A stretch of DNA of 46,442 nt from an uncultured bacterium. Its GTDB lineage: Bacteria > Krumholzibacteriota > Krumholzibacteriia > WVZY01 > JAKEHA01. The notes under the pieces were generated by a model. The model ran no database searches. It was not told the DNA's origin and worked only from the letters and a program-made list of their open reading frames with translations. The stretch lies in assembly GCA_965371015.1 (NCBI GenBank), contig CBDUWU010000002.1, positions 1 through 46,442 on the forward strand. The letters are read 5' to 3'. Of this stretch, positions 3,741 to 35,098 are shown one piece after another (within the stretch, counting starts at the first letter, position 1; each line of letters opens with the position of its first letter). Both the position numbers and the translations under genes were made by a program.

Positions 3741-3770
3741 TCGCTCCAGCCTCCTCGAACCACGGTAAAT

Positions 3771-3787
3771 AGCACGAGTTGTGCCAA
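3771..3787 (-). promoter_or_regulatory. sigma54 (-24/-12) promoter candidate for the GYF/TPR membrane protein gene
   Basis: Minus strand reads TTGGCAC-AACTC-GTGCT, against the consensus TGGCAC-N5-TTGCW. The -12 GC lies about 32 nt upstream of ATG 3740. Confidence 0.55.
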
Positions 3788-3824
3788 AAACCCCAGAAGG
3801 CGGGGCGGTTTCGGTCCCCAACGC

Positions 3825-3854
3825 AAAAGAACCGGCCTGGAATTCCGGACCGGC
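3825..3854 (-). terminator. intrinsic terminator candidate after the PEP-CTERM gene
   Basis: Minus strand GCCGGUCCGG-AAUU-CCAGGCCGGU forms about 9 pairs including wobbles. It is followed by UCUUUUGCG, 40 nt past the stop at 3897. Confidence 0.55.
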
Positions 3855-3896
3855 TCTGTGAACAGACAAGAGGAGAGAAGGGAGTTTTTCGCCGAC

Positions 3897-4559
3897 CTAG
3901 CCCATCTCGCGCTGTTTTCTTCTGACCGAGTACAGGAGTGTCAAACCGATCAGACCGCTGGCGAGCAGCACCCAGGTCGCAGGCTCGGGCGCCGGGTGGA
4001 CGGTCATGCGCACAGCCATATGGTCGTAACTCTGGTCGGCGTGGGAGCTGCCGGCGTAGAGCCCGTTCCAGGCCATCAGGTACGAATTCGAATTCATCGG
4101 ATCCCGGTAGAACAGCGCCTGGACGGCGCCGTTGGTGTTGAACGGACTGAACGAGTAATAGCGCGTCGTCCTCCATCCCTCCCTCCTGGAGATATAGAAA
4201 CCGTACGTCGTGTTGTCGCGACTCGCATCGTACATCCGGTTGGCACCGACCTTGGTTGCGGCCTTAAATACATCCTTGTGACGATAATATGTACCCCACT
4301 GGCGGGTTCGTCTTTCCAGGACACCAAAGCTCAAATCGGTGATGCCGGAGCGGCTCATCAACTGGAACTCCATCATGCCCTGCAGCCGGAAGTTGAGGTC
4401 GGTCTGGTAGTTGGCGACGTCGATATAGTCGTAGCCCAGGCTGTTGAACACGTTCTGGAGCGATCCGCCGCCGGAGCCGGAAAACACGGATGCATGGGTC
4501 TGGAACGCACACAGCGCCAGGACGCCAAAAGCAATTAGTAACACTCTACCCTTCATCAT
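3897..4559 (-). CDS. secreted PEP-CTERM sorting-domain protein of unknown function
   Basis: Start set at ATGATG 4559/4556, preceded by GAGAGG. Signal peptide MMKGRVLLIAFGVLALCAFQTHA. The C-terminus PAPEPATWVLLASGLIGLTLLYSVRRKQ shows the PEP motif, a TM helix and a basic tail. Confidence 0.8.
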   Translation of the reverse strand: MMKGRVLLIAFGVLALCAFQTHASVFSGSGGGSLQNVFNSLGYDYIDVANYQTDLNFRLQGMMEFQLMSRSGITDLSFGVLERRTRQWGTYYRHKDVFKAATKVGANRMYDASRDNTTYGFYISRREGWRTTRYYSFSPFNTNGAVQALFYRDPMNSNSYLMAWNGLYAGSSHADQSYDHMAVRMTVHPAPEPATWVLLASGLIGLTLLYSVRRKQREMG

Positions 4560-4614
4560 CGCGCCTCTCGATACTGATAGTCTTGATTGGATGCAATTCA
4601 GCATAAGATATAAA

Positions 4615-17838: not shown

Positions 17839-18282
17839 TCAGGTCCGGGGCGAGAAATTGGCCTTCCGGATTTCTTCCAGGAGGTCCTTGACCTTTTCCT
17901 CGATTTCGTCGCCGATCCGGCGGAACACCGACAGGGGGCGGCCGATCGGGTCGTCGACGTCCCAGTCGATCAGTCTTCCCGGGAATTCGGCGGGAAACAA
18001 CTCGACGGCCGGGATACCGGTCATCGACACCACCATGTCCATTTCATTGAGTGGTACTTCGTCGAGACCGTTGGACCGCTGATGGGATATGTCGATGCCG
18101 TGCTCTTCCATCATGAGAATCGCGTCCTCGCTGACAACTCCCGTCGGGTGCAGCCCCGCGCTCCACACCTCGACCACGTCGCCGCCTATTTCGCGGGCGA
18201 ACCCTTCGGCCATCGGTGAACGGCACATGTTGCCGATACAGATGAAGAGCACTTTGGTCTTCTGGGTTGCGGGTGACGTCAT
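17839..18282 (-). CDS. low-molecular-weight protein-tyrosine phosphatase
   Basis: P-loop VLFICIGNMCRSPMAEG (CX5R-S) and a DP acid loop (WDVDDPIG). GAGGAA sits upstream of ATG 18282. Confidence 0.85.
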   Translation of the reverse strand: MTSPATQKTKVLFICIGNMCRSPMAEGFAREIGGDVVEVWSAGLHPTGVVSEDAILMMEEHGIDISHQRSNGLDEVPLNEMDMVVSMTGIPAVELFPAEFPGRLIDWDVDDPIGRPLSVFRRIGDEIEEKVKDLLEEIRKANFSPRT

Positions 18283-21219: not shown

Positions 21220-22059
21220 TTAGTCAGCGGCTGCGTGAGGCTGCTCGTTGAGAGTCCAGTCGTAGTCCAGGAACTTGATCTTGAAGTCGCCCGTCCGCAG
21301 GTACTCCGCGTCCGCATCGTCGACGTAGCGCATCACGAAGTTCAGCACCGCCTGCTTCTCTTCGCCGCGCCGGCCCGGCGGGTCGCCCGTTCCATAGCCG
21401 TCGACAAAGTCACCCCCGAACCAGTCGAAGATCGCCGAGAGGTACACCACGTCTTTGCCCCGGTTGATCCGGAAATTGGTATCGTTCGACAAAAACTCGC
21501 GCGCCTGGTCGTCCAGCTGATCGTCCAGCACGGCCGCCTCGAACGGCTCACCCCGCAGTTCCGGACACGAGAGCGCCGCACAAACGAGCGCCACGTGGAT
21601 CCGCGGCTCGGCGAACTTCCCTCGCAACACCGCGTGTTCGATCTCGTCCAGCGTCATCGGTTCGCCCATCACGCCGAACGACACTTTTTTCCACCGTCCA
21701 GGTATCTGCATGATGCTGTTCTTCGGTAACACGAGCGAGCGCAGACGGGACGACTCGATCGGATAATGATCGACGATCAGTTTCAAAGTCAGTCCGTTGT
21801 AAGCGTTGATCCAGAAGGCGATCTTCTCTTCGTCCGTCCAGCCCTCATAGACCTCCCGGTCGAGCCCGGCGAGCGACGCGGTCCACGCTTCGAGCAGCTC
21901 GCCGTTCGCTTTGAGGCCAGCATAGTCGACCAGTCCGCCGTCGTCGACGTATCCCGACAGAATGGCCGCGTAGCCGCCGTTGTCGAATGCCGCGACCGCG
22001 GTGGCCGGGGTAGAATATTGCGCGGCGATCAATATCAACACTGTAAAATAAGCTTTCAT
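21220..22059 (-). CDS. secreted DUF547 family protein
   Basis: Start moved to ATG 22059, which overlaps the upstream stop (ATGA). Signal peptide MKAYFTVLILIAAQYSTPATAVAA. Also has WINAYNGLTLKLIVDHYP and HVALVCAALSCPELR. Confidence 0.8.
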   Translation of the reverse strand: MKAYFTVLILIAAQYSTPATAVAAFDNGGYAAILSGYVDDGGLVDYAGLKANGELLEAWTASLAGLDREVYEGWTDEEKIAFWINAYNGLTLKLIVDHYPIESSRLRSLVLPKNSIMQIPGRWKKVSFGVMGEPMTLDEIEHAVLRGKFAEPRIHVALVCAALSCPELRGEPFEAAVLDDQLDDQAREFLSNDTNFRINRGKDVVYLSAIFDWFGGDFVDGYGTGDPPGRRGEEKQAVLNFVMRYVDDADAEYLRTGDFKIKFLDYDWTLNEQPHAAAD

Positions 22060-22763
22060 GATTTCCTTCTTTGTGACCTCAACCAGGCCGGGTAGTACCT
22101 GAATATCGTTCCGATAATCTTGGTCCCCGCCAGCACCGTTCCCCTTACAGTCCCGGTGATCTTTGACTGGCCGATCCTGGCCCGGTAGCGCACCGGCACC
22201 TCCACGATCCGCGAGCCCGCCATCAGCGCCTTGGCCTGCATCTCGACGTTCCAGCCGAACGTCGGGTCGGACATGCCGTAAGAGAGCAGGTGGTCGCGCC
22301 GGATCGCGCGGAACGGCCCCATATCGGTAAAACGAAATCCGTAGAACACCCGCATGAGAAAAGTGGCCAGCATGTTGCCCCAGCGCTGGTTCCACGGGAG
22401 AGATCCCTTCTCCGCCCGCCCCAGGGTGCGCGACCCGATCACCATGTCGGCGCGTCCCTCGCGAATCGGCGCCAGGAGGTCGGGGAGGTCTTCCGGGTAG
22501 TCCGAGTGGTCCGCGTCGAGGATGACGATCACGTCCGTATCGTCTCCCGTGTGGCGGATACCCTTCAGGCACGCGGCTCCGTACCCGCGCCGGTCTTCGC
22601 GCAACGTGACCGCCCCGTGCGCATCGGCGACCTCGGCCGTACGGTCGGTCGACCCGTTGTCGACGACGATCACAAGGTCGACGTATTCCCGCGGTATCTC
22701 GTCGAGCACGGCGCCCACGGACTGTTCCTCGTTGTACGCCGGCATCACGATGACTGTCTTCAC
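22056..22763 (-). CDS. GT2 glycosyltransferase, polyprenol-phosphate sugar synthase (DPM1/ArnC-like)
   Basis: GTG 22763 lies 7 nt after GGAGG and overlaps the upstream stop (GTGA). VKTVIVMPAYNEEQSV, VVDNGSTDRT and ILDADHSD (DxD). Confidence 0.85.
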   Translation of the reverse strand: MKTVIVMPAYNEEQSVGAVLDEIPREYVDLVIVVDNGSTDRTAEVADAHGAVTLREDRRGYGAACLKGIRHTGDDTDVIVILDADHSDYPEDLPDLLAPIREGRADMVIGSRTLGRAEKGSLPWNQRWGNMLATFLMRVFYGFRFTDMGPFRAIRRDHLLSYGMSDPTFGWNVEMQAKALMAGSRIVEVPVRYRARIGQSKITGTVRGTVLAGTKIIGTIFRYYPAWLRSQRRKS

Positions 22764-24046
22764 CCCACCGCCTCCTTCCGACGGCCGCGGAGAGCGTCGT
22801 AGAGGAGCAGGGCGTAGAACGGGACGTATTCGACCGCGTAGATCCGCCACGGGAGCACCCACTCTCCCCCGGCCGCGTCGATGACCCACACCCGGTACGA
22901 CACCATCACCAGCCCCGTGAACAGGATCCACGCCCGGTTGCGGTAGAAGCAGAGGAAGGGGACGATCCACGCTACGTACCACGGGTACAGCGTCGGTGCG
23001 AGCAAAAGACCCGTCGCCACGGCGACAAAGCCGAAACGAACCGGGTCTTTCTGCCGGAACGCCTGGTAGATCACGACACCACCGACGGCCAGCGTGAGCA
23101 GCCGCCGCGTCCACACGGGATCGTTGAGGACGGAATCGGCGACCTTGTATGCGAGCCCGTTGAAGTTCCAATCGGCGCTGTAGAGCTTCAGGCTGGAGAA
23201 CAGCCCCGCTCCGGCTCCGGCAAACGGCAGGTAACCCGCCACCACCACCGCCGTCATGACGCCGACCCAGGCGGCGTACTTTCTGCGCGCCAGGAAATAC
23301 GGCACAAAAACGGCGGAGAGATATTTGGCGAGGAACGACAAACCGAGCGCGGCGAATCCCCCGATGTTCTTTTGCCGTGCAACCAGAAACAGCCCCAGCA
23401 GGAGAAAGAAAATCCCCACGGGCTCGACGTGCCCCGAATGCCCGGTCTCGAAGATCACGAGCGGGTTCCAGGCGTAGACGACAACAGCCGCCGGGTCAAT
23501 CGAACGGAGCCGCAACATGGCCCCGATGAGGAGGATCACCCCCAGATCGAAGATCACGAAGAGCAGCTTCTGGGTCTGCACGTCGGGTCGAATTCCGGCG
23601 GCCAGGGCAAATACCGCCTGCGATACGGGCGGATAAATTGTTTCGAGGTGTTTGTGGTTGATGTCGTCGTAGTTTTCGTCGCGGAGGGGCTCGAGTTCTT
23701 CGGCGTCGGGCGCGTGAGAAAAGGGGTTGAAGCCGTGGGTGATCATGCGCCCTTCCCACAGGTAACGGTAGATGTCGGTGGACATCACCGGTTGGGCCGG
23801 AATCAGGACTCCCCGGCTGATCGCCGCCACGGCGAACACGAGAACGAACAGCCGGTGTCCGCGGACGGCGGCCCAACTGCGGCCAAGAACAAACAGGGTG
23901 AGCAGGTAAATGCCGAACGCAGCGAAATAGAGCGCGAGAAAGAGGCCGACCTTGTCGTTGAGTCCCTCGATTCGCGAAAGAGCCGCGAAGAGCATCGCCA
24001 GGGCGGTGCCGGCCCCTGCAACGATCCATCGCGAGTTTCGGCTCAT
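22760..24046 (-). CDS. GT-C type integral membrane glycosyltransferase (DUF2029/GT87-like)
   Basis: 428 aa with more than 10 TM helices. Periplasmic loop motif MSTDIYRYLWEGRMITHGFNPF. Confidence 0.8.
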   Translation of the reverse strand: MSRNSRWIVAGAGTALAMLFAALSRIEGLNDKVGLFLALYFAAFGIYLLTLFVLGRSWAAVRGHRLFVLVFAVAAISRGVLIPAQPVMSTDIYRYLWEGRMITHGFNPFSHAPDAEELEPLRDENYDDINHKHLETIYPPVSQAVFALAAGIRPDVQTQKLLFVIFDLGVILLIGAMLRLRSIDPAAVVVYAWNPLVIFETGHSGHVEPVGIFFLLLGLFLVARQKNIGGFAALGLSFLAKYLSAVFVPYFLARRKYAAWVGVMTAVVVAGYLPFAGAGAGLFSSLKLYSADWNFNGLAYKVADSVLNDPVWTRRLLTLAVGGVVIYQAFRQKDPVRFGFVAVATGLLLAPTLYPWYVAWIVPFLCFYRNRAWILFTGLVMVSYRVWVIDAAGGEWVLPWRIYAVEYVPFYALLLYDALRGRRKEAVG

Positions 24047-24047
24047 G

Positions 24048-25511
24048 TCATCGCTTCGCGTGAATAACGGAGAGTCCGAACACGTAGAGGTATCCGGACA
24101 CGAACAACATCACGTACGGCAGCGCCGCCCAGTTTCGCGTGATGATCAACGCACCCAGCGCGGCGCACATATAGACCGAGAGCACGAATTCGGCTACTAA
24201 CGTCGGCTTGCGCATCGAACGGTAGATTTTGCCCTTCCACCGGTCCTTGAACGACTCGATCCGGTACTTGGCCGTGCGCACGAACGGTGTCTGCCTGCCG
24301 AGCAACGCTTCGGTGACCGCCCACGCGTTGTTGATGCACATGCCGATTCCCAGCGCGAAAATCAACGGGACGTCCTTGATGCGCCAGCGCCAGTCCCGGT
24401 ACAACTCGCGCTGGGCCGTCAGGTAGAAGAGGAAGATCGACAGCGTCGTCAGAGCGAAGATCGCCATTTCCCAGAAGAGCGATCCGCGCGCCAGTGCGTG
24501 CGAGCGCAGAATCACCGACAACGGCATGAGTACCGACAGCAGAACGAGGAGGAGATAACTCAGGTTGGCGCTGAGGTGAAACGTCGCCTCGAGCTTGACT
24601 CGCAGCGGCACTTCGCTGCGCCATATCCGTCCCAGCAGCTTCCTGCCGACCTGTATCGAGCCCTTCGCCCACCGGTGCTGCTGGGTCTTGAACCCGAATA
24701 TATCGACCGGCAACTCGCTGGGACAAACGACTTCCGGCACGAATACAAACTTCCATCCGCAAAGCTGGGCGCGATACGAAAGGTCGAGGTCCTCGGTGAG
24801 CGTATCGCCCTGCCAGCCACCCGACTCGAGGATTGCGCGCCGGCGAAACACGCCGCCGGTGCCATTGAAGTTGAAAAACCGGCCCGACAGGTGACGCGCC
24901 GTGTGCTCGAGGATGAAGTGACCGTCGAGCAGCAGCGACTGGACGCGCGTGAGAAGCGAATAGTTCCGGTTGAGGTACCCCCACCGCGTCTGCACCATCC
25001 CGACGCGCGGATCCCCGAAGTGCGGCACGGTTTTCTCGAGGAAATCCGGCGGCGGTATGAAGTCAGCGTCGAAAACGGCCACCAGTTCGTCGGGCGACTC
25101 GTCGAGGCCTTCCTTGAGCGCGCCTGCCTTGAATCCCTCGCGGTTTTCGCGGTGCCGGTATTCGACGTTGAACCCGAGCGCCACGAGGTCGTCGGTCGCC
25201 TCACGGGCAACGACTCGCGTGTCGTCGACCGAGTCGTCGAGGACCTGGATCCTGAGGAGGTGCTTCGGGTAGCGGATCGCCGCCGCCGCCTCGATCACCC
25301 GCCGCGCGACGTAGTACTCGTTATACAGCGGCAGCTGGACCGTGACGGCCGGGTAGTCGGCGGGTTCCATCCGGGGCGGTGCCGGCCGGCGGGCAAACTT
25401 GTAGTGCCGGAAGTACAGATAGAGAATGAAATACCGGTGGATCCCGTAGATGGAGAGCATCGCCAGGATACCGAAATATGCATAAACCGTAATTGACGCG
25501 AGCGTATTCAT
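24048..25511 (-). CDS. membrane-embedded GT2 glycosyltransferase with D,D,D,QxxRW signature (CslA / glucosyl-diacylglycerol synthase-like)
   Basis: Start preferred at ATG 25511 (MNTLASITVYAYF...). The alternative, 25580, would overlap arsS. LPLYNE, VLDDSVDDT, VFDADF, TEDLDLSYR and QQHRWAKG, plus C-terminal TM helices. Confidence 0.85.
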   Translation of the reverse strand: MNTLASITVYAYFGILAMLSIYGIHRYFILYLYFRHYKFARRPAPPRMEPADYPAVTVQLPLYNEYYVARRVIEAAAAIRYPKHLLRIQVLDDSVDDTRVVAREATDDLVALGFNVEYRHRENREGFKAGALKEGLDESPDELVAVFDADFIPPPDFLEKTVPHFGDPRVGMVQTRWGYLNRNYSLLTRVQSLLLDGHFILEHTARHLSGRFFNFNGTGGVFRRRAILESGGWQGDTLTEDLDLSYRAQLCGWKFVFVPEVVCPSELPVDIFGFKTQQHRWAKGSIQVGRKLLGRIWRSEVPLRVKLEATFHLSANLSYLLLVLLSVLMPLSVILRSHALARGSLFWEMAIFALTTLSIFLFYLTAQRELYRDWRWRIKDVPLIFALGIGMCINNAWAVTEALLGRQTPFVRTAKYRIESFKDRWKGKIYRSMRKPTLVAEFVLSVYMCAALGALIITRNWAALPYVMLFVSGYLYVFGLSVIHAKR

Positions 25512-25560
25512 TTTACCGAGTGTATTTGTAACTGTACGTTTTCCGCAAGAGAGAAGGCCG

Positions 25561-26514
25561 TTACGCCAGCGCGCCGCCACACGAAGAACCCCGGCCGGCC
25601 GTGCAGCCGAAACAGTGGGCGCCCGTCTCGATGCGTCTTTGATGGAGTTGAGGGTCGAAATTGCTGACGTGCGTCGGCATGCCGTGGTTGACCTTGAGTT
25701 TCAGCGCAAGATTGAAATCACAGTCGTACATGTTGCCTTCCCAGTCGATATTGATCTGGTGCCGGCACATCAGCCCTTCTATGGTCGACGGGTTGAACGC
25801 GTCGCGAAGAAGCTGCCGGTATTCGTCCGCCTTCTTCTGCCGGCGAAGGCCGCCCATGAACCGTCCGATGGGCATATTGGTTATCGTGATCAGACGTGAA
25901 AATTCGATCCCGTGACGGGCCCGCAATTCGCGGTGGTAGTCCGCTTCCAGCGCGGCCTGGTCGGGCGGCAGGTAGGGCCCCACCGGGTTGTAGACCAGAT
26001 CGAGCGGAAGGCCCGGGTCACGCCCGTATCCCAGTTCGTTGAGCCTCCGGATGGACTCGATCGATCCGCTGTACACGCCCTCACCGCGCTGCCGGTCGAC
26101 GTTTTGCTCGAGATAACACGGGAGCGACGCGACGAGACGGACCCCTTGTTCCGCCATGAACCGGGCCACGCCCTCGTATCCCGGCTCGAGGTGGATGGTC
26201 AGGTTCGTCCGGACCTGGACGGGAATATCCAGCGCCCGCCCCTGTGAGACGAACCGCTCGAAATTCGCGTTGATTTCCGGAGCGCCTCCCGTGACGTCGA
26301 GGAGGCTGCAGCCGACGTCGCGGGCGATCCTGAGAACATGGTCCATCGTTTCCCAGTCCATCTCCTCGGTCCGTTTCGGCGAGGCGGCCACGTGACAGTG
26401 GACGCACTGCTGATTGCAACGCAGCCCCACGTTGACCTGGACGATCGAAATCCGATCGGCAAGGAGCGGCCCGCCGGTGGAATCGACAATTTTCTGATCG
26501 AACTCGTTTATCAT
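25561..26514 (-). CDS. arsS: radical SAM / Cys-rich-domain protein, arsenosugar biosynthesis ArsS family
   Basis: ATG 26514 preferred (alternative GTG 26535). CNQQCVHC (CX3CX2C) at 26395-26418. C-terminal Cys-rich tail HCFGCTAGRGSSCGGALA. Lies directly downstream of the arsM-like gene. Confidence 0.85.
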   Translation of the reverse strand: MINEFDQKIVDSTGGPLLADRISIVQVNVGLRCNQQCVHCHVAASPKRTEEMDWETMDHVLRIARDVGCSLLDVTGGAPEINANFERFVSQGRALDIPVQVRTNLTIHLEPGYEGVARFMAEQGVRLVASLPCYLEQNVDRQRGEGVYSGSIESIRRLNELGYGRDPGLPLDLVYNPVGPYLPPDQAALEADYHRELRARHGIEFSRLITITNMPIGRFMGGLRRQKKADEYRQLLRDAFNPSTIEGLMCRHQINIDWEGNMYDCDFNLALKLKVNHGMPTHVSNFDPQLHQRRIETGAHCFGCTAGRGSSCGGALA

Positions 26515-26525
26515 TTCCGTAGTTT

Positions 26526-27581
26526 TCAACAGCACGCCCCCCCGGTTCCTTCGGCGTCACGCGCGCCGGCCGCGGCGGGGTCGCAATCGAACGGCCCGTA
26601 GTGCGTGCCACGATCACCCGTCACGAGAAAATGGCCCGCGTATCTCGTTCCGGAGAGCATCGCGGCCGTGTTCCCGCATACGAGCGTCGGTTTGCCGGTG
26701 ACGAACTCGTGGTGGTCGTCCAGCGCAAACCGATGCGGCCCGCCCGGAATCGTCCCGCGATACGTGGCTGTCTGTCCGTAGTCTTCACAGATATCCTCGA
26801 GTGTGTCCAGATTGAAAGCCCTCACCGTCATCGAGTAGAAGTCGATACCCCCGACCTTTGCCTCTATTTCCGGATCTCCGGGCTCGATCGGGCTGCGCGA
26901 AATAACTCGATAATCGTTGATGCCCATGCCGCGGAGCATCCGCCGGAAGTCTTCGATGTACATCGCGCCCCCGAGACACTCTCCGTAGAGGACTGGGTCG
27001 TCGCGCAGGTGGTCGGGCACGCGGCGTCCGGCAAACACGTCGGAGAAGATCAGTTCACCGCCCGGCTTGAGAACGCGGAAAATCTCGGCAAAGGCGCGCG
27101 GCTTGTCGGGGGATAGGTTGAGTACGCAGTTCGAGATCACCACGTCGACGGAATCGTCTTCGATCCCGGCGGCGGCGAGGTCCTCGATGTATCCGTGCCG
27201 GAAAGAGACGTTCGGCCTTTCCAGACCGAATCTCTCCGCCTGGCCTTCCGCGTGACGGACCGCGACGGCGAGTTGTTCTTCCGTCATGTCGACGCCGATC
27301 ACCCGGCCGCCGGCGCCGGCGAGCGCCGACGCGATATAAACGTCCCGGCCCGTCCCGCAGCCCAGGTCGAGGACAACCCTGTCCTCGAGCAACGGCGGGA
27401 TCGGAGATCCGCAACCGTAGAACTTCTCGATGATCTCGGGATGAATATTCTCGAGTATCTCCCTGTGTTCGGCCCCAAGTCCTTCCGTTGGACAGCAGGC
27501 GTTTGTCCTGAGGTCCCGGGCGCCCGTCAGGGTTTTCCCGTAGTACTCTTTTACTTCTTTGTGTTTCAGCGGTACCGACAT
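26526..27581 (-). CDS. arsM: arsenite S-adenosylmethionine methyltransferase
   Basis: Start moved to ATG 27581 (GGAG upstream). VKEYYG, NACCP, FYGCGSP, SAM motif VLDLGCGTGRD, VISNCVLNL and YGECLGGAMY, giving four ArsM-type Cys positions. Confidence 0.85.
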   Translation of the reverse strand: MSVPLKHKEVKEYYGKTLTGARDLRTNACCPTEGLGAEHREILENIHPEIIEKFYGCGSPIPPLLEDRVVLDLGCGTGRDVYIASALAGAGGRVIGVDMTEEQLAVAVRHAEGQAERFGLERPNVSFRHGYIEDLAAAGIEDDSVDVVISNCVLNLSPDKPRAFAEIFRVLKPGGELIFSDVFAGRRVPDHLRDDPVLYGECLGGAMYIEDFRRMLRGMGINDYRVISRSPIEPGDPEIEAKVGGIDFYSMTVRAFNLDTLEDICEDYGQTATYRGTIPGGPHRFALDDHHEFVTGKPTLVCGNTAAMLSGTRYAGHFLVTGDRGTHYGPFDCDPAAAGARDAEGTGGACC

Positions 27582-27738
27582 CGGGCAATCTCCGGAACTT
27601 GTTTTTGCAAATGGACGGTTTCGTTTCAACGGGGCGGGCACACGTGCCGCGCCCCCGGATTGATTGTCTGCTTTGTCGCCGGGCAGGGAGATAACTTACG
27701 TTCGATCTGGTATCAGGGCAAGGGCGATCGCGGCCGAA

Positions 27739-28458
27739 TCAGCCGTTTTTGAGCCTGTAGTCTTCACTGTAGAACCTGACCAGCTTTTCAGGTGATACGC
27801 CGGCAGCGTAGAGAATCGATATCATATAGTTCTGGAGCACACGCCGGGCGATCCCTTCCGCCTCCAGTCGGCGGCGCGAGGTCCGGACGAAACTATCCAA
27901 TATTTTCATTCGCCCGCCGAGCCGGCGGATGCGGCGGACAATCTCTACGTCTTCCATGAGGGGAATCTCGCTGTACCCCCCGATCCGTTCGAAATGGGCG
28001 CGCCGGAGGAATATCGCCTGGTCCCCGTAGGGAAGCCGGTTCCAGCGCGAACGAATGGTGACGAAGCCCGACATGAGGCGATAAATGAACCGGTCGGAAT
28101 CGAATCGCAGCCGGAACGCCCCGCCGACGATTTCATCGCTGGAGAGAGCCGCGTCGATATCGGAAAGCGCGCCGGGAGGAAGCCGGGTGTCGGCGTGCAG
28201 AAATATCAACGTCGCGCCTCTCGCGGCGGCGGCCCCGGCATTCATCTGTCGGGACCGCCACCGTGGAGACGTCATGGTAACGACGTGATCGTCCTGGATG
28301 GTTCCGATGGTACCGCCGGCGGGGTCACCGTCGACGACGATCACTTCGCAGCGACCGGCGCCGTCGAGCCCGCCGATGTGTTCCAGCAGACCGGCGACCG
28401 TGTCTTCCTCATAGAGGACAGGCACGACGATCGAAAAATCCGGCCCGGCCTGTTTCAT
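27739..28458 (-). CDS. small soluble GT2-family transferase (resembles the 'rSAM/selenodomain-associated transferase 2' family)
   Basis: FSIVVPVLYEEDTV, IFLHADTRLP and LPYGDQAIFLRRAHFERIGGY. The ATG directly abuts the upstream stop (TAGATG). Confidence 0.8.
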   Translation of the reverse strand: MKQAGPDFSIVVPVLYEEDTVAGLLEHIGGLDGAGRCEVIVVDGDPAGGTIGTIQDDHVVTMTSPRWRSRQMNAGAAAARGATLIFLHADTRLPPGALSDIDAALSSDEIVGGAFRLRFDSDRFIYRLMSGFVTIRSRWNRLPYGDQAIFLRRAHFERIGGYSEIPLMEDVEIVRRIRRLGGRMKILDSFVRTSRRRLEAEGIARRVLQNYMISILYAAGVSPEKLVRFYSEDYRLKNG

Positions 28459-30645
28459 CTAGAGACTTTCGCTCGAAATACCCATCGTCTTGAGGACGAA
28501 TGAGTAAATGTCGGCGTATTCCTCGATGACCTTGGTCATCGGCTTGCCGCCCCCGTGTCCCGCCTTCATTTCGACGCGCAACAGGAGCGGATTCTTGCCG
28601 CTGTCCGCCGCCTGCAGCGTCGCGGCGAATTTCTTCGCGTGTGACGGCACGACGCGGTCGTCGGTATCGGCGCTGGTGATGAGCGTCGGCGGATACGTCG
28701 CGCCCGGTTCGACGTTGTGCAAAGGCGAGTACTCGTACATGAACTTGAAGTGCTCGGGGTCCGCCTCGGCGTTACCGTAGTCGCTCACCCAATAGCGCCC
28801 CACCGTGAACTTGTGGTAACGGAGCATGTCGGTCACCGGGACACGGCATACCACGGCGCCGAACAGCTCGGGACGCTGTAACAGGCACGCCGCCACCAGC
28901 AGGCCGCCGTTGCTGCCGCCGCTGATCAGGAGACGCGGAGTGCTCGTCCAGCCTTCGGCAATGAGATACTCGGCCGCGGCGATGAAATCGTCGAACACAT
29001 TCTGCTTGTTCCCGAGGATGCCCCCCTGGTGCCACTCTTCTCCGTACTCTTCGCCCCCGCGGATATTCGCTACCACATAAACACCGCCCATCTCGAGCCA
29101 CAGCAGGCGGCTGGCGCTGAAGTATGGCGTCATGCTGACGTTGAACCCACCGTAGCCGTAGAGCCAGCACGGATTCTGGCCGTCTTTCTCGAGCCCCTTC
29201 TTGTGGGTCACGAACATCGGGACCCGCGTCCCGTCTTTCGATTCGAAGAAGTACTGCTCGGTAACGTATTTGGAAGAATCAAAATCAATCTCGGGTTCGC
29301 GGAAGACGGACAGTTCGCTTTTCGCAAAGTCGTAGCGGTATGCCGTGGTCGGATAGACGTAAGACGTAAAGCCGTAAAACATCTCCTTGTCCGTGCGTTT
29401 TCCCGTTATGCCCCACACAGAACCGATCGTGGGCATCTCGATGTCGCCCGCCGGCTTGCCTTTCTTGTCGAACAATTTGATCTGATTGTGGGCGTCGTGC
29501 ATGTACCCTACGACGAACTTGTTATCCACCATCATGGCGAAGTCGATGACGTCCTTGCTCTCGGGAATGATTTCTTTCCAGTTCTTGCGGTCGGGATTGT
29601 CGACGTCGATGGCGATGATCCGGCTTCGCGGCGCATCGAGCGTCGTATTGAAGAACCACGTCGACCCGATGTTGTCTACGAAGACGTAGCGCGCTTCGTG
29701 CAGGTCCAGCAGCGTGGTAAAGTCACCGTCGTTCTCGACCTTGCGGTAGTAGATACCGTTGCGGTCGTCGGTCCCGTGGTACGCGTATAAAATCAGGTAC
29801 TTGCCGTCGTCCGTGATCCCCGGGCCGAAGCCGTACTCTTTGTTGGCCTCGTCCTCGTAAACGAGGACGTCTTCCGACTGCGGAGTGCCGAGTTTGTGCC
29901 AGTAGACGCGGCTGAAGTTGTTCATATCTTTTTCCGGCACCTCGCCCTCGGCGGGAAACCGGTTGTAGTAGAAGCCCGAGTTGTCGTGCTTCCACGCGAT
30001 GCTGGAGAACTTGCACCACTCGAGGACTTCATCGAAGTCCTTGGCCGCGTCGATGTCGCGGACGTGAATTTTCTGCCAGTCGCTGCCCGAGCTCGACAGA
30101 CCGTAGGCGAGCAGCGTGCCGTCGTGGCTGTACTCCTTGGCGTTGAGCGCGATCGTTCCGTCCTCGCTCAGTGTATTGGGGTCGATCACGACGGAGGCCT
30201 GTCCGTCGAGCGACTTCTGCATGTAGAGAACCGACTGGTTTTGCAGCCCGTCGTTCTTGGTGAAGAAATAGCGGTCCCCGTGTTTATAGGGGAGCGAATA
30301 GCGCGGGTAATTCCAGATGTTGGTGAACCAGTCGACGATCTTGTCGCGTCCCGCGTAGGAGTCAACGTAACCGCGGGTCAACTCGTTCTCCGCGTTGACC
30401 CACTCGATCGTATCATCGGCGTCGGGGTCCTCGAGCCAGCGGTACGGATCCGCCACGATGGTGCCGTGGTAGTCGTCGGCGACGTCGACTTTGTTGGCTT
30501 CCGGGTATTTATATTCGCCGGCTTCGCCGGCATGGACGGCGTCGAACACCGTCCCGGCCATGAAGACGGCGGCCACGGAGAACGCGATCAACGCTACGGT
30601 TTTGCACACGCCGCAGCTTTGCCGCACCGGTTGATTCGATGACAT
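28459..30645 (-). CDS. prolyl oligopeptidase (S9A), N-terminal signal/anchor
   Basis: Start moved to ATG 30645, preceded by AGGAGGAG. DPYRWLED. Ser-Asp-His triad context GGSNGGLL, D in ADTDDRV, and AGHGGG. Confidence 0.9.
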   Translation of the reverse strand: MSSNQPVRQSCGVCKTVALIAFSVAAVFMAGTVFDAVHAGEAGEYKYPEANKVDVADDYHGTIVADPYRWLEDPDADDTIEWVNAENELTRGYVDSYAGRDKIVDWFTNIWNYPRYSLPYKHGDRYFFTKNDGLQNQSVLYMQKSLDGQASVVIDPNTLSEDGTIALNAKEYSHDGTLLAYGLSSSGSDWQKIHVRDIDAAKDFDEVLEWCKFSSIAWKHDNSGFYYNRFPAEGEVPEKDMNNFSRVYWHKLGTPQSEDVLVYEDEANKEYGFGPGITDDGKYLILYAYHGTDDRNGIYYRKVENDGDFTTLLDLHEARYVFVDNIGSTWFFNTTLDAPRSRIIAIDVDNPDRKNWKEIIPESKDVIDFAMMVDNKFVVGYMHDAHNQIKLFDKKGKPAGDIEMPTIGSVWGITGKRTDKEMFYGFTSYVYPTTAYRYDFAKSELSVFREPEIDFDSSKYVTEQYFFESKDGTRVPMFVTHKKGLEKDGQNPCWLYGYGGFNVSMTPYFSASRLLWLEMGGVYVVANIRGGEEYGEEWHQGGILGNKQNVFDDFIAAAEYLIAEGWTSTPRLLISGGSNGGLLVAACLLQRPELFGAVVCRVPVTDMLRYHKFTVGRYWVSDYGNAEADPEHFKFMYEYSPLHNVEPGATYPPTLITSADTDDRVVPSHAKKFAATLQAADSGKNPLLLRVEMKAGHGGGKPMTKVIEEYADIYSFVLKTMGISSESL

Positions 30646-30712
30646 AATAGTCTCCTCCTGTATGTGGAATTTGTCTCGGGAGCCGTCATTATAATACACT
30701 CGCCGGCCCGTC

Positions 30713-30741
30713 TTGACAGTACGCATTTCAGGAGGTATCGT
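30713..30741 (+). promoter_or_regulatory. sigma70-type promoter candidate for the thi operon (TTGACA-17-TATCGT)
   Basis: TTGACA at 30713-30718, 17-nt spacer, TATCGT at 30736-30741. Confidence 0.45.
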
Positions 30742-30749
30742 AGGAACGA

Positions 30750-30800
30750 GACGGGGGTGCCCGGCCGTCATCCGCCGGGCCGGGCTGAAATCAAACCCAC
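30750..30800 (+). promoter_or_regulatory. THI-box-like element (5' half of a TPP riboswitch aptamer only)
   Basis: GGGGUGC, then a P3-like stem CCCGGCC...GGCCGGG, then CUGAAA (consensus CUGAGA), then ACCC. The ACCUGAUCUGG..GCG..GGGA half is not recognisable before ATG 30820. Confidence 0.3.
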
Positions 30801-30819
30801 CGCGAAATCATTCATACTG

Positions 30820-31971
30820 ATGTATAAAGAAGAAAAAGACCGCGTCGCCATCGTCGGCGGCGGCATCATCGGCCTGGGGCTGGGATGGCAGCTGGCGCGC
30901 CGCGGACGCCCGGTCACTGTGTTCGACAAGGACACCGCCGGACGGGCTGCCAGCTGGGTGGCGGCGGGTATGCTCGCCCCCGTGTCGGAGTTCGACTTCG
31001 AGAACGAAGATTTTCTACGATTCGGGCAGAAGAGTCTGGAACTCTTCCCCCGCTTTCTCGACGAACTGGCACAGGACAGCGGGCGCCGGGTGAAGCTGGA
31101 TACGCGCGGCACGATGATGGTGGGATTTCACCGCGACGATACCGAACGCATCCGCCGTATCTACAATTTCCGCGAACACCGTGGCCTGCCGGTCACGTGG
31201 TTGACGGGCACCGAGGCGAGAGAAATCGAACCCCTCCTCTCCCCCAAAGCCGCCTCGGCGATGTGGATTCCCGAAGACCACCAGGTCGACAACCGCGACG
31301 TGGTCGATGCGTTGAAACTCGCGCTGACCGGCGCGGGCGGCGAGCTGGTCGAGGAAACGGCGGTCAAGGCGATCCGCACGGAGAGAGGACGGTGCACGGG
31401 CGTCGTCACCTCCACCGCCGATCAGGCGGAAAGCCTGATCCACGATGCCGGAACGACGGTGATCGCGGCGGGCTGCTGGTCGGGCCTCATCGAAGGTATC
31501 CCCGAAGAAATCGCCCCCCCCGGGGTGCGCCCGGTCAAGGGGCAGATCGTCTCCCTCCTCACCGACGAGACGTACGAGTTCAAGCGCGTGATCCGCGCGC
31601 CGGACGCTTACATACTGCCGAAAGGCGACGGGCGCCTTCTCATCGGCGCGACGGAAGAGGAGATGGGATTCGACACGACGCCGACGGCGGGCCCTGTGAT
31701 GAGGCTCATCGAACGTGCGTGGGAAGCGGTTCCGTCGATATACGACCTGCCGATCGAGCGCATCGACGCTGGCCTGCGCCCGGGCACCCGGGATCACGAA
31801 CCGCTGATCGGTGAGACGGGAATGGAGGGGCTGGTGTACGCGACGGGACACTACCGGCACGGAATACTGCTGGCGCCGATCACCGCTTATTCGCTGTGCG
31901 ACATGATTGTCGACGGCGCGGTACCGGATGACCTGGCGCCGTTCGCTCCGACGCGTTTTTCGAGGCGATGA
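30820..31971 (+). CDS. thiO: glycine oxidase
   Basis: Start moved to ATG 30820. RVAIVGGGIIGLGLGWQLARRG. DAO fold. Located immediately upstream of thiS and thiG. Confidence 0.88.
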   Translation: MYKEEKDRVAIVGGGIIGLGLGWQLARRGRPVTVFDKDTAGRAASWVAAGMLAPVSEFDFENEDFLRFGQKSLELFPRFLDELAQDSGRRVKLDTRGTMMVGFHRDDTERIRRIYNFREHRGLPVTWLTGTEAREIEPLLSPKAASAMWIPEDHQVDNRDVVDALKLALTGAGGELVEETAVKAIRTERGRCTGVVTSTADQAESLIHDAGTTVIAAGCWSGLIEGIPEEIAPPGVRPVKGQIVSLLTDETYEFKRVIRAPDAYILPKGDGRLLIGATEEEMGFDTTPTAGPVMRLIERAWEAVPSIYDLPIERIDAGLRPGTRDHEPLIGETGMEGLVYATGHYRHGILLAPITAYSLCDMIVDGAVPDDLAPFAPTRFSRR

Positions 31972-32180
31972 ACGACATGGAACTGACGGTCAACGGCACG
32001 CCCCGGACGATCGAAGCGGCGACGGTCGCCGAACTGATGGTCGAGCTGGGCTTCGAGCTCAACGCGCCCGGCATCGCGGCGGCGCTCAACGGCGCGGTGG
32101 TACCGCAGACGGAGTGGGGCTCGGCGAAGCTGGACGACGGCGACACGATCGACATCATCCACGCCGTCCAGGGCGGTTGA
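31968..32180 (+). CDS. thiS: sulfur carrier protein ThiS
   Basis: 70 aa ending ...IIHAVQGG. ATGA overlap with thiO. Confidence 0.9.
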   Translation: MNDMELTVNGTPRTIEAATVAELMVELGFELNAPGIAAALNGAVVPQTEWGSAKLDDGDTIDIIHAVQGG

Positions 32181-32213
32181 TATCTGTCGGCCTTATACGA
32201 TCAAGGAATCAGT

Positions 32214-32990
32214 ATGGACAAGTTCAAGATTGCAGACAGAGAATTCGGCTCGCGGTTGATCGTCGGGACGTCGCGGTATCCCGACCCGCAGACCATGCTC
32301 GACGCCCTCGAAGCCAGCGGGACCGAGATGGTCACCGTCGCCATTCGGCGCGTCAAGCTCGACGACCCCTCCGAAGAGAGCCCCCTGCGGCTGTTGCGCA
32401 AACGCGGCTACTTCATCCTCCCCAACACCGCCGGTTGTTACACCGCCAGGGAAGCCGTGCTCACAGCCCGGCTCGCGCGAGAAGCCCTCGGCGAGAACTG
32501 GATCAAACTCGAGGTCATCGGCGACGACGAGACCCTCTTTCCCGACGTTCCCGAGCTCCTCAAGGCCGCCGAGCAGCTCGTCGCCGAAGGATTCGTCGTG
32601 CTTCCCTACTGCAACGACGACCCCATCTCGTGCAAAAAACTGGCCGGCATCGGATGCGCCGCCGTCATGCCGCTCGGCGCGCCCATCGGCAGTGGAATGG
32701 GCGTTCGCAATCCATACAATCTCCAGATCATCCGGAAAATGGTAGACGTTCCGCTCATCGTCGATGCCGGGGTCGGGACCGCATCCGACGCCGCCATCGC
32801 CATGGAACTCGGCGCCGAGGGAATCCTCCTCAACACCGCTATCGCCCAGGCCAAGCACCCCGTCGACATGGCCCGGGCCATGCGTCTCGGCGTCGAAGCC
32901 GGCAGGTTGGCCTTCCGTGCCGGGCGAATACCCCGTAAACTGTACGCGACTGCGTCGAGCCCCCTGGAAGGCATGATCGGAGGCGATTGA
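32214..32990 (+). CDS. thiG: thiazole synthase
   Basis: [32 protein letters not shown] and [13 protein letters not shown]. Confidence 0.95.
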
Positions 32991-32991
32991 A

Positions 32992-33636
32992 GTGATAGAT
33001 TTCCGCTTTTACCTCGTTACGGACCGCAAGCAATGCGCTCCGCGGTCACTGCAGTCCATGGTCAGGGAGGCGTGCGACGCCGGCGTCAAAGCCGTGCAGT
33101 TGCGCGAAAAAGACCTCGCCCCCAGGGAGGTCGAGGAGTACATCGCACGGCTCCTCGAAATCACACACGACCGGGACACCCGGCTTCTGCTCAATCGCAA
33201 GGAACCCATCCGCGAAGCCGAGGACGCATATCTCGCAGCCAGCCTCACCGTCGACGGATTTCACTTCCCCGAGGGAATGACGTTTCCGCACGAACTCCGC
33301 GCGCGGTTTCCGAAAGTGCTCGTCGGCATGAGCACCCACTCGGCGGGGGCCGCCGTTACCGCCGCGGCGGAAGGCGCCAGCTTTATCACGTTCGGCCCCG
33401 TGTTCGAGACACCGTCCAAAAAGACCTACGGACCGCCGCAGGGACTCGACGCCCTCGCGAAAGTAACGGCGAGTATCACCGTCCCCGTGTTCGCCATCGG
33501 CGGCATCACGCCCGACAATGCGGCCGATTGCATCGCCGCCGGCGCCCACGGAGTGGCCGCCGTCAGCGCCGTAATGACGGCCGAGGACATCGGCAACGTC
33601 GTCGGCCGTTTCCGCTCTGCAATCGGATCGCTGTGA
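32992..33636 (+). CDS. tenI: ThiE paralog lacking the ThiE Mg/PPi motifs; probable TenI-like thiazole tautomerase
   Basis: GTG start. TMP-TENI fold. NRK replaces NDR, GFHFPEG replaces GVHLGxxD, and FGPVFETPSKK resembles TenI. Confidence 0.65.
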   Translation: MIDFRFYLVTDRKQCAPRSLQSMVREACDAGVKAVQLREKDLAPREVEEYIARLLEITHDRDTRLLLNRKEPIREAEDAYLAASLTVDGFHFPEGMTFPHELRARFPKVLVGMSTHSAGAAVTAAAEGASFITFGPVFETPSKKTYGPPQGLDALAKVTASITVPVFAIGGITPDNAADCIAAGAHGVAAVSAVMTAEDIGNVVGRFRSAIGSL

Positions 33637-34286
33637 TTCCCGCGCGTCCCCCGATCGGCCGGCTTCACGTCATCACCGACACCCGCATCCAGGACCGGTT
33701 CGACCACGTCGAGCTCGCGCGCATGTCGGTCGCGGGCGGCGCCACCGTCATCCAGATTCGTGACAAACAGTTGACCGATGCGGAACTCGTGTCCGTAGCG
33801 AAACGCGTTCTTGCCGATTGCCGCGCCGCGGGAGCGTCGCTCATCGTCAACGACCGCATCGAGGTGGCGGCACGGGCGGGGGCCGACGGCGTCCATCTCG
33901 GCCACGATGACGCGCCCATTGCCCAGGCACGGCGAGTGCTCGGCGCCGATGCGGTCATCGGCGGCAGCGCGGGAACGGTGGACGAGGCGGTGGAAGCGGC
34001 CCGGGCCGGCGCCGACTACGTCGGCTTCGGCCACGTATACCCGACCTCGACCAAGAACAAACCGGGGCCGCCCGTGGGGCTCGATGGACTCGCGCTCGCG
34101 TGCTCGGCAATCGAAATTCCCGTCATCGCCATCGGCGGTATTACCGGAGAGTCCGCCGCCGGCGCCCTGGCCGCCGGCGCCTGGGGGGTGGCTGTCGTCG
34201 GCGCCGTCTGCGCCGCCAGCGATCCCGAGGCCGCCGCGCGCGCCCTCGCGTCGTGCATCGCCCAGGGCCACGGAGACGCATCATGA
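33633..34286 (+). CDS. thiE: thiamine-phosphate synthase
   Basis: GTG 33633 overlaps the upstream stop (GTGA). [35 protein letters not shown] and [10 protein letters not shown]. The ORF-track start at 33033 is rejected. Confidence 0.85.
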
Positions 34287-35098
34287 CAAAAATTAAGCAG
34301 GCGCTCACCATCGCCGGCTCCGACTCCGGAGGGGGCGCCGGCATCCAGGCCGATATCAAGGCGATGCAGGCCAACGGCGTTTTCGCCGCATCCGTTGTCA
34401 CCGCGGTGACCGCGCAGAACACGGTCGAGGTACGCAGCGCCGTCGAGTTGCCCCTCGAATCGATTCGCGCCCAGCTCGAAGCGGTATTCGACGACTTCGA
34501 CATCACCGCCGCCAAAACGGGCATGCTGGCATCGACGGGCGTCATCGAAACCGTCGCTTCGTTTCTCACCGAAACCGGTTTTCGGGACCTCGTCGTAGAC
34601 CCCGTAATGATCTCGAAGAGCGGCTATTCCCTCCTCGCCGCCGACGCGGTCACGGCACTCCGCGACCAACTTCTGCCGCTCGCGCTCGTCGCCACTCCCA
34701 ACCTCCACGAAGCCTCGCTGCTCGCTGGAATCGAAATCGCCGGACTCGACGACATGAGAGAGGCGGCGAGGATCATTCACGGTTCGGGTCCGCGAAACGT
34801 GATCGTCAAGGGCGGACACGCCGACTTCAGCCCGGGGACCGACGTGCTGTTCGACGGCAGAGAGTTCCATGAATTCGCGGCGGACGCAGTGTTCGACAGG
34901 AGCGTCCACGGGACCGGGTGCACGTTTTCAGCCGCGATCACCGCCCGCCTGGCGCTGGGGGAACCCCTCACCACCGCCGTCGCCAACGCCAAGACGTACG
35001 TCACCTGCACCATCGAGCACCAACTCGAGATCGGCGCCGGCCACGGCCCCGGGCATCACTTCTATTTCCTCGACTCGTCGGATTTTCAGAAGAACTGA
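34283..35098 (+). CDS. thiD: hydroxymethylpyrimidine / phosphomethylpyrimidine kinase
   Basis: ATG 34283 overlaps the thiE stop (ATGA). [26 protein letters not shown] and [10 protein letters not shown]. Confidence 0.9.

Follow-up and report, generated by a model that had tools for sequence, protein, structure and literature searches.

An arsM-arsS gene cluster with linked envelope-type glycosyltransferases and a DUF547 protein in an uncultured bacterium

Contig CBDUWU010000002.1, from an uncultured bacterium assigned to the Krumholzibacteriota, was analysed over positions 1 to 46,442, a stretch of 46,442 nucleotides (nt), or 46 kilobases (kb), that is referred to below as the window. Between positions 28458 and 21220 it carries seven tightly packed genes, all on the minus strand, that include the arsenosugar genes arsM and arsS. 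With the gene that abuts the block upstream, the order is S9 peptidase, TIGR04283-family glycosyltransferase of the GT2 type, ArsM, ArsS, membrane GT2, GT-C fold glycosyltransferase, DPM1-like GT2, and DUF547 protein. Read directly from the sequence, the junctions along these eight genes measure 0, 157, 11, 49, 1, -4, and -4 nt. An earlier sequence-only reading of this DNA had claimed seven genes on one strand, with spacings of 11, 49, and 1 nt and two overlaps (GTGA and ATGA); each gene is present where that reading had placed it, and these junctions are all borne out. Its gene identifications hold as well, as judged by NCBIfam and Pfam profile scores, alignments with Protein Data Bank (PDB) entries, and motifs. 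The span of the block stood as far as the placement of the seven genes is concerned, while its start was probably set one gene short, as the S9 peptidase gene lies immediately upstream.

The ArsM gene (26526-27581, minus strand, as are all genes of the block) encodes a 351-amino acid (aa) protein with similarity to crystallised ArsM proteins throughout its N-terminal, Rossmann, and C-terminal domains: residues 9-341 align with residues 26-363 of 5evj (E 4e-105), and residues 4-334 align with residues 19-352 of CmArsM (4fr0, E 9e-93). The motifs NACCP, YGCG, SNCV, and GECLGG are all present, and their cysteines align with CmArsM Cys44, Cys72, Cys174, and Cys224 (4kw7/4fr0). With a full-length alignment and all four catalytic cysteines, the protein is identified as an As(III) S-adenosylmethionine (SAM) methyltransferase, as had been proposed. 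Its scores fall under every NCBIfam ArsM cut-off (NF008823, 177.5 vs 263 bits; NF040538, 161.4 vs 500; NF038099, 105 vs 400); these models cover narrower subfamilies.

The ArsS gene (25561-26514) is separated from the stop codon of arsM by 11 nt. The predicted radical SAM enzyme scores 411.9 bits with TIGR04167 (cut-off 300) and has both the CX3CX2C motif (CNQQCVHC) and a cysteine-rich DUF3641 tail (PF12345, 172 bits; CFGCTAGRGSSCGG), in agreement with its earlier identification as ArsS. Its identity to other ArsS homologues is 48-63% in the sample from outside its clade and 63-96% among close relatives. Two genes upstream of arsS is the TIGR04283 gene (27739-28458), whose product has no hydrophobic segment and passes the equivalog cut-off of its family (230.9 vs 182 bits). 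This small GT2 had been likened in the sequence-only reading to the family 'rSAM/selenodomain-associated transferase 2', a resemblance that the score supports; the current NCBIfam label of the family is 'arsenosugar biosynthesis glycosyltransferase'. The core of arsM, arsS, and the TIGR04283 gene is one that NCBI annotation models already recognise.

Three further glycosyltransferase genes follow arsS. The first (24048-25511) encodes a 487-aa BcsA/PgaC-like membrane GT2 of the synthase type, with the D, D, D, QxxRW signature in the form of DD, DAD, TED, and QQHRW. It matches Pfam Glyco_trans_2_3 and Glyco_transf_21 (42.6 bits), and residues 20-473 align with residues 91-545 of the BcsA core (E 3e-27). 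One hydrophobic segment is N-terminal and approximately five are C-terminal (residues 310-485, after the GT domain), the latter aligning with the channel region of BcsA. The protein differs from BcsA and PgaC in that it has no PilZ domain and no partner genes: no BcsB or PgaA/B/D homologue was found among the window open reading frames (ORFs) scanned with Pfam. It also falls far under the curated cut-offs for CelA (128.4 vs 699 bits) and PgaC (115.1 vs 422), and from its sequence could equally be a glycolipid synthase.

The second gene (22760-24046) encodes a 428-aa GT-C fold glycosyltransferase of the GT87 or MptA_B type. It scores 29.8 bits with Pfam GT87 (cut-off 25), the former DUF2029, and its homologues in clade relatives carry the precomputed label PF26314 MptA_B. 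The protein has at least seven hydrophobic segments and an invariant Asp91 in the motif SxDIYRYxWEG, taken as the acidic residue of the first external loop. A single-sequence search of the PDB returned no match for it, and a profile search returned a weak one, to the mannosyltransferase 9dm5 at a marginal E of 0.098. The third gene (22056-22763) encodes a DPM1/AglJ-like GT2 of 235 aa that consists of the GT-A catalytic domain only. It is similar to the dolichol-phosphate mannose synthase (DPMS) 5mlz (E 2.7e-12) and to ArnC (E 6.6e-8), and its DxD-bearing motif LDADHSD is kept across the orthogroup. The motifs, the BcsA core alignment, the GT87 score, and the 5mlz match uphold the previous description of these proteins as a membrane GT2, a DUF2029 GT-C enzyme, and a DPM1-like synthase. 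No NCBIfam model scores above its cut-off for any of the three or for the DUF547 protein.

The last gene of the block (21220-22059) starts at position 22059, where its start codon overlaps the upstream stop codon as ATGA. Its product had been described as a secreted DUF547 protein, and both parts of this description are supported (PF04784, 94.6 vs 27 bits; signal peptide-like N-terminus). PF04784 is a domain of unknown function, and most of the titles listed for it are about plants. In our alignments, the motif H155-x4-C160-x4-C165-P166 is invariant across lineages. The AlphaFold2 model is of good quality (mean predicted local distance difference test [pLDDT] score 89.7, predicted template modelling [pTM] score 0.87), and Foldseek found no PDB match to it with E below 1; sequence and profile searches of the PDB gave nothing meaningful. 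The DUF547 protein is either a secreted one or, in some loci, joined to a membrane VTT domain, and its gene often adjoins that of a disulfide reductase. A plant fusion of the DUF547 domain to glutaredoxin is described in PMC13621322. Because of the invariant cysteine motif, the secretion or VTT fusion, the disulfide reductase neighbour, and the plant glutaredoxin fusion, our best guess for this protein is a thiol-based role at an arsenic centre.

We read the genes from the S9 peptidase through DUF547 as one co-directional transcription unit. The block probably starts one gene earlier than proposed, at the S9 peptidase gene (28459-30645), because the TAG of that gene directly abuts the ATG of the TIGR04283 gene (28458/28459, 0 nt between) and because a promoter-like site precedes it. 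This site (CTGTCA-17 nt-TATTAT, 30688-30719, minus strand), found in a consensus promoter scan, is likely the start of the transcription unit. A matching element, CTGTCA-17-TATAAT, lies ahead of the orthologous peptidase gene in a relative (L004, 5919-5947), and an AGGAGG ribosome-binding site precedes the window peptidase ATG at 30645. It is the only good promoter-like site of the whole block. Consensus scans found no promoter- or terminator-like pattern in the 49-nt gap between arsS and the membrane GT2 gene, nor in the equivalent gaps of the relatives L004 and L006, and the counts of such patterns inside the cluster in all three sequences are at background. The absence of a separating signal between arsS and the downstream GT2 gene agrees with the tight coupling that had been suggested. 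The longest gap, 157 nt between the TIGR04283 gene and arsM (27582-27738), contains a GC-rich palindrome (27631-27656) and is a possible internal regulatory site; the scan detected no consensus promoter or terminator in it. A riboswitch or attenuator at this position was considered and dropped, as the predicted RNA fold is not more stable than that of shuffled sequences (z = -0.15). An Rfam scan of the whole window gave zero matches, and no tRNA genes were found either.

Conservation of gene order among close relatives was not used as evidence of coupling. In these relatives, those with a name being annotated as Latescibacterota or Krumholzibacteria, the arrangement is the same throughout, and since the flanking thiamine and peptidase genes are kept as well, shared ancestry accounts for the synteny. 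The linkage was instead assessed by three independent tests (sampling by arsS, reciprocal sampling, and gene fusions); approximately 170 related loci were examined overall. A first sample, with one genome per species, was drawn by arsS and comprises 77 loci outside the clade (1,089 kb in total), the neighbouring ORFs of which were grouped by unbiased clustering. The partners with curated names are TIGR04283 (29 loci), TIGR04282 (29), ArsM-like proteins (20), and the AhpD-like TIGR04169 (17). Those without such names are VTT/DedA proteins (15), fatty-acid hydroxylases (13), flavin adenine dinucleotide (FAD) disulfide oxidoreductases (12), DUF547 proteins (12), phosphate transporters (7), the DPM1-like GT2 (5), and GT-C (3). 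Twelve DUF547 genes in about 1.1 Mb, or about 1 per 90 kb, would be a more than 10-fold excess if genomes carry few copies of the gene. DUF547, DPM1-like GT2, and GT-C genes are found beside arsS in Planctomycetota, Acidobacteriota, Poribacteria, Verrucomicrobiota, and Desulfomonilaceae.

A reciprocal sample was drawn from metagenomes by the DPM1-like orthogroup alone and gave 80 loci, 45 of them at least 8 kb in length. An arsenosugar marker is present in 24 of these 45 loci, a membrane GT2 gene directly downstream in 25, GT-C in 16, and DUF547 in 18; at least one of the membrane GT2, GT-C, and DUF547 genes occurs in 30. The linked loci range from 31 to 64% in guanine-plus-cytosine (GC) content and have many gene orders. 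Of all 80 loci, 32 have a membrane GT2 homologue (36-56% identity) directly after the DPM1-like gene; the two genes share a strand in every case, and the median gap is 164 nt. Sampling by DUF547, with contigs picked regardless of arsS, placed arsS within 5 kb in two of four long contigs.

Gene fusions add to this linkage. DPM1-like, TIGR04282, and TIGR04283 domains are joined, in this order, in one ORF in a member of the Sedimentisphaerales (L012, 13369-15369) and in one of the Planctomycetaceae (L019, 4834-7059), with DPM1-like domains that are 50-58% identical to the window protein; a Desulfomonilaceae locus (L087, 17123-19156) has the same architecture as determined by Pfam. A homologue search with the DPM1-like protein did not reveal these fusions: the matches listed (at least 120) were all standalone proteins of at least 62% identity. 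Other fusions join a VTT/DedA domain with DUF547 or with a MerA-like FAD disulfide oxidoreductase, NF004991 (L007, 4868-7180; L085, 12186-14483; L031, 13993-15651). With several phyla, 24 of the 45 DPM1-sampled loci, and the fusions taken together, the glycosyltransferase genes do co-occur with arsS in unrelated genomes; neither this test nor those of the transcription signals and of the methyltransferase identity refutes the sequence-only reading. Comparative genomics shows a functional linkage of the cluster genes.

Related loci elsewhere carry the full curated arsenosugar set. A fuller version of the system, on a marine contig (L149, 38% GC), is a same-strand operon of 13 genes in the order TIGR04169, ArsS, rhodanese (NF045521), TIGR04282, purine nucleoside phosphorylase, AsSugarArsM, DUF547, TIGR04283, FAD oxidoreductase, NapH-like iron-sulfur membrane protein, DPM1-like GT2, membrane GT2, and GT-C. 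L156 is a locus in which the GT-C gene comes next. The marine operons place DUF547 between arsM and TIGR04283. The L149 phosphorylase gene (3768-4583), between TIGR04282 and ArsM, scores 343 bits with NF006054 (cut-off 218), and the adjacent AsSugarArsM scores 569 bits with NF038099 (cut-off 400). A phosphorylase is encoded in 14 DPM1-sampled loci (among them L109, L130, L136, L138, L145, L152, L155, L156, L162, and L166) and in four arsS-sampled loci (L025, L029, L039, and L054). From its sequence and position, this purine nucleoside phosphorylase homologue is a candidate for the adenine-removal enzyme of arsenosugar synthesis.

Low-GC marine loci have two further features. An FAD disulfide oxidoreductase gene and a gene for a NapH-like 4Fe-4S protein lie directly upstream of the DPM1-like gene in L149 (7028-9962) and in approximately 20 other metagenome loci, and a rhodanese gene (NF045521) comes after that of ArsS. 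The combination of oxidoreductase, NapH-like protein, and rhodanese hints at a branch dedicated to redox or sulfur chemistry. Elsewhere (L086 and L088), the trio of DUF547, VTT, and oxidoreductase occurs without arsS.

The arsM genes that adjoin arsS in different phyla belong to three lineages: the window type, a 387-aa type, and the NF038099 type. As three ArsM lineages have been recruited beside arsS, it can be argued that the system needs methylated arsenic. A metagenome-assembled genome of the Phycisphaerae (L018, 3003-4064) has an ArsM gene directly after arsS whose product is 67% identical to the window ArsM; other Planctomycetota loci encode the different 387-aa type, with approximately 32% identity to the window protein. 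The arsM type may thus have been passed on horizontally.

Besides BcsA and PgaC, three known systems resemble parts of the window cluster. One is the arsM-arsS pair of Synechocystis sp. PCC 6803, the arsenosugar pathway of which was reported by Xue et al. in 2019 and Cheng et al. in 2021, as cited in bioRxiv 10.1101/2022.09.23.509062 and PMC12159101: the genes are likewise adjacent and co-oriented, ArsS has the CX3CX2C motif and the cysteine-rich tail, and ArsM has the four cysteines. The cyanobacterial pair ends at the adenosyl-arsenical step, whereas the window pair sits among four glycosyltransferases and DUF547, and the window comes from a non-phototroph that resembles Latescibacterota or Krumholzibacteria. 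The second system is the 'rSAM/selenodomain-associated' set of NCBIfam, which now bears the label of arsenosugar biosynthesis and is made up of TIGR04167 (ArsS), TIGR04169 (AhpD-like), TIGR04282, TIGR04283, NF038099 (AsSugarArsM), and NF045521 (rhodanese). The window shares TIGR04167 and TIGR04283 with this set; it is without TIGR04282 and TIGR04169, and its ArsM is not of the NF038099 type. An FAD oxidoreductase gene is also absent from the window.

The third comparison is with periplasmic glycosylation from polyprenyl-phosphate sugars, as in GtrA/GtrB/GtrC glucosylation of O-antigen, ArnC/ArnT modification of lipid A, and the Ppm1/PimE/MptA proteins of mycobacteria. Like these systems, the window pairs a DPM1/GtrB/ArnC-like GT2 with a multi-span GT-C enzyme. 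Unlike its counterparts in the Gtr and Arn systems and archaeal DPMS, the window GT2 is without C-terminal membrane helices, and no GtrA-like flippase was found in the window. The sugar would differ as well: the proposal calls for a pentofuranose that bears arsenic, where the known systems use a hexose or 4-amino-4-deoxy-L-arabinose (Ara4N). If so, the nearest analogy would be the decaprenyl-phosphoryl-arabinofuranose donor of the mycobacterial GT-C arabinosyltransferases.

We lean, by a modest degree, towards reading the cluster as a compact form of a widespread and apparently undescribed extension of the arsenosugar pathway, in which an arsenoriboside is placed onto an envelope lipid or glycan by way of a polyprenyl-phosphate carrier. 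The sequence-only reading had put forward the conversion of an arsenosugar into an envelope glycolipid or glycan; the gene linkage behind that proposal is supported, and the identities of donor, acceptor, and product are what we infer from the gene families. The first steps are those established for homologues: ArsM methylates As(III) to dimethylarsenite, with which ArsS combines the 5'-deoxyadenosyl radical of SAM, yielding 5'-deoxy-5'-dimethylarsinoyl-adenosine (bioRxiv 10.1101/2022.09.23.509062; PMC12159101). The window ArsM would supply dimethylarsenite in the same way, and the window ArsS is predicted to 5'-deoxyadenosylate it to 5'-deoxy-5'-dimethylarsinoyl-adenosine, a reaction established for homologues. 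Adenine would then be removed and the arsenoriboside activated, which elsewhere may be done by the phosphorylase homologue and the nucleotidyltransferase-like TIGR04282, both absent from the window. The soluble GT2 proteins (TIGR04283 and the DPM1/AglJ-like protein) would transfer the arsenoriboside, one of them onto polyprenyl phosphate, and the GT87-type GT-C enzyme would use the lipid-linked donor at the outer face of the membrane. The acceptor would be either a membrane lipid or a glycan that the BcsA-like GT2 makes and exports. In the periplasm, the invariant Cys-x4-Cys pair of the secreted DUF547 protein may serve to handle the arsenic centre, by thiol binding or redox chemistry. The recurrence of DedA/VTT proteins and a fatty-acid hydroxylase in related loci fits a lipid-linked route. 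The stronger version of this proposal, in which the genes encode each of the late arsenosugar or arsenolipid steps (phosphorylase, activation by TIGR04282, loading by the DPM1-like protein, transfer by GT-C, and action of a new-fold DUF547 on the arsenic), we put forward as tentative and somewhat doubtful.

Several observations weigh against an envelope-directed arsenosugar pathway in the window. No TIGR04282 (DUF2064) homologue was found by tblastn in the 46 kb, and the window is without a nucleoside phosphorylase. No GtrA-family protein is present among the Pfam-scanned window ORFs, tblastn found no VTT/DedA gene, and no flippase candidate emerged. The DPM1-like GT2 scores under its curated cut-offs (AglJ TIGR04182, 123.6 vs 325 bits; NF041391, 92.9 vs 375) and has no hydrophobic 19-mer in its 235 aa, and so is without the typical membrane anchor, which leaves room for a soluble acceptor. 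Human DPM1 likewise has no membrane anchor, so this absence does not exclude the proposed function. In the arsS sample, the DPM1-like GT2 (50-56% identity) occurs in only 5 of the 77 loci and GT-C in 3. Nine of the 45 DPM1-sampled loci have a solitary DPM1-like gene among housekeeping genes, and the other two of the four DUF547 contigs have only an FAD oxidoreductase, with no arsS within 10 kb.

The remaining points of this kind are also the case for an alternative that we judge unlikely, namely that two independent modules lie side by side: an ordinary envelope glycan or glycolipid set, and an optional cassette (ArsM, ArsS, and TIGR04283) for detoxification through soluble arsenosugars, with location or regulation shared and substrates not. 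Within the clade, the interval flanked by the peptidase and membrane GT2 genes is variable in its content of arsM, arsS, and the TIGR04283 gene, while the four downstream genes are constant. One relative is without TIGR04283 (L001), the Joint Genome Institute (JGI) contig of P0006 has a 99-aa gene where arsM would be, one locus has arsS only (L091), one has arsM only, with no arsS or TIGR04283 (L089), and one has none of the three (L090). The ars genes thus act as a variable insert, and as the four genes stay in place in L089 and L090, where arsS is missing, the downstream module is not strictly dependent on a neighbouring arsS. Envelope-module genes are also found without an arsenosugar marker within reach in 12 of the 45 DPM1-sampled loci, and all four downstream families are of generic glycan-biosynthesis types. 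Against this alternative stands the recurrence of these families by arsS in several phyla, across 31-64% GC, and in many gene orders. So do the proteins of several lineages in which TIGR04282 and TIGR04283 are covalently fused to the DPM1-like domain, the position of DUF547 between arsM and TIGR04283 in the marine operons, and the gap of only 49 nt that separates arsS from the membrane GT2 gene in the window and is free of transcription signals. As an observation in its own right, the presence of arsM, arsS, and TIGR04283 in every combination at a fixed site is suggestive of repeated loss or of a mobile cassette.

A second alternative, which we consider improbable, retains the arsenic and changes the acceptor: the DPM1-like GT2 would be a soluble enzyme of the glucosyl-3-phosphoglycerate synthase type that transfers the arsenoriboside onto a small glycerol-type acceptor to yield soluble arsenosugars of the classical kind, with GT-C and the membrane GT2 acting elsewhere. 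The short length of the protein and its lack of any hydrophobic segment would suit such a role, as would its matches to glucosyl-3-phosphoglycerate synthase (PDB, E 4.5e-6; NF010496, 49 bits) and the fusion of its domain to the soluble TIGR04282 and TIGR04283 domains; arsenosugar aglycones are, moreover, glycerol derivatives. Its best matches are nonetheless to dolichol-phosphate mannose synthase, AglJ, and ArnC. The membrane GT2 and GT-C genes recur after the DPM1-like gene, and GT-C enzymes need a lipid-phosphate-sugar donor. DedA/VTT proteins, which have been implicated in polyprenyl-phosphate recycling, recur in the neighbourhood of related loci.

It is highly improbable that the window ArsS-family enzyme acts on a non-arsenic substrate, such as a selenium compound or another 5'-deoxyadenosyl acceptor, to give a non-arsenical modified sugar: although the functional assignment of the family goes back to a single cyanobacterial enzyme (cited in bioRxiv 10.1101/2022.09.23.509062 and PMC12159101), NCBIfam names TIGR04167 a '(seleno)protein', and thiol or redox proteins (AhpD-like, rhodanese, FAD disulfide reductases) are recurrent neighbours, the arsM gene 11 nt upstream of arsS encodes all four of the As(III)-binding cysteines, the three ArsM lineages have been recruited beside arsS in different phyla, an ArsC-like gene lies downstream, and the window ArsS is 48-63% identical to its out-of-clade homologues and far above the equivalog cut-off.

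This ArsC-like low-molecular-weight phosphatase (17839-18282, minus strand) scores 101.7 bits with TIGR02689 (cut-off 157.6) and 82.9 bits with Pfam LMWPc. Its gene is approximately 3 kb downstream of the cluster, after genes for a GATase, a glucose/sorbosone dehydrogenase, and a UbiE-type methyltransferase; the position is kept in clade relatives, and a homologue adjoins arsS in L062. From its sequence, the protein is possibly an arsenate reductase feeding ArsM. On the other side of the cluster, the S9 prolyl oligopeptidase (Pfam Peptidase_S9_N, 422.5 bits; Peptidase_S9, 215.4 bits) has a hydrophobic segment at residues 10-38 that would be an N-terminal membrane anchor or signal. Linkage of this peptidase to the cluster is seen only inside the Latescibacterota/Krumholzibacteria-like clade, and with linkage limited in this manner, the peptidase, GATase, glucose/sorbosone dehydrogenase, and UbiE-type methyltransferase were rejected as pathway members. 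Divergent from the cluster, a thiamine block occupies positions 30664-35098 of the plus strand (a thiO-like DAO, two TMP-TENI domains, and Phos_pyr_kin); the Rfam scan revealed no thiamine pyrophosphate (TPP) riboswitch in any part of the window.

Aquatic food webs carry arsenosugars and arsenosugar phospholipids as major forms of arsenic. To our knowledge, only ArsM and ArsS, the first two enzymes of arsenosugar synthesis, have been assigned to genes, and no description of the downstream neighbours was found in the searchable part of the literature. The recurring set of a DPM1/AglJ-like GT2, a BcsA-like GT2, a GT87-type GT-C enzyme, and DUF547 would provide the first gene candidates for the late steps of arsenosugar or arsenolipid synthesis, to which other lineages add a nucleoside phosphorylase, TIGR04282, DedA/VTT proteins, FAD disulfide reductases, and a fatty-acid hydroxylase. 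A biochemical question is in this way turned into a short, testable list of genes, and DUF547, a domain also present in plants, gains its first genomic context. For many bacteria, the set also suggests an end product held in the membrane or envelope instead of a soluble one. Should the stronger version of the proposal be correct, many non-phototrophic bacteria, including Latescibacterota, Planctomycetota, and low-GC marine lineages, would build arsenic into their envelopes.

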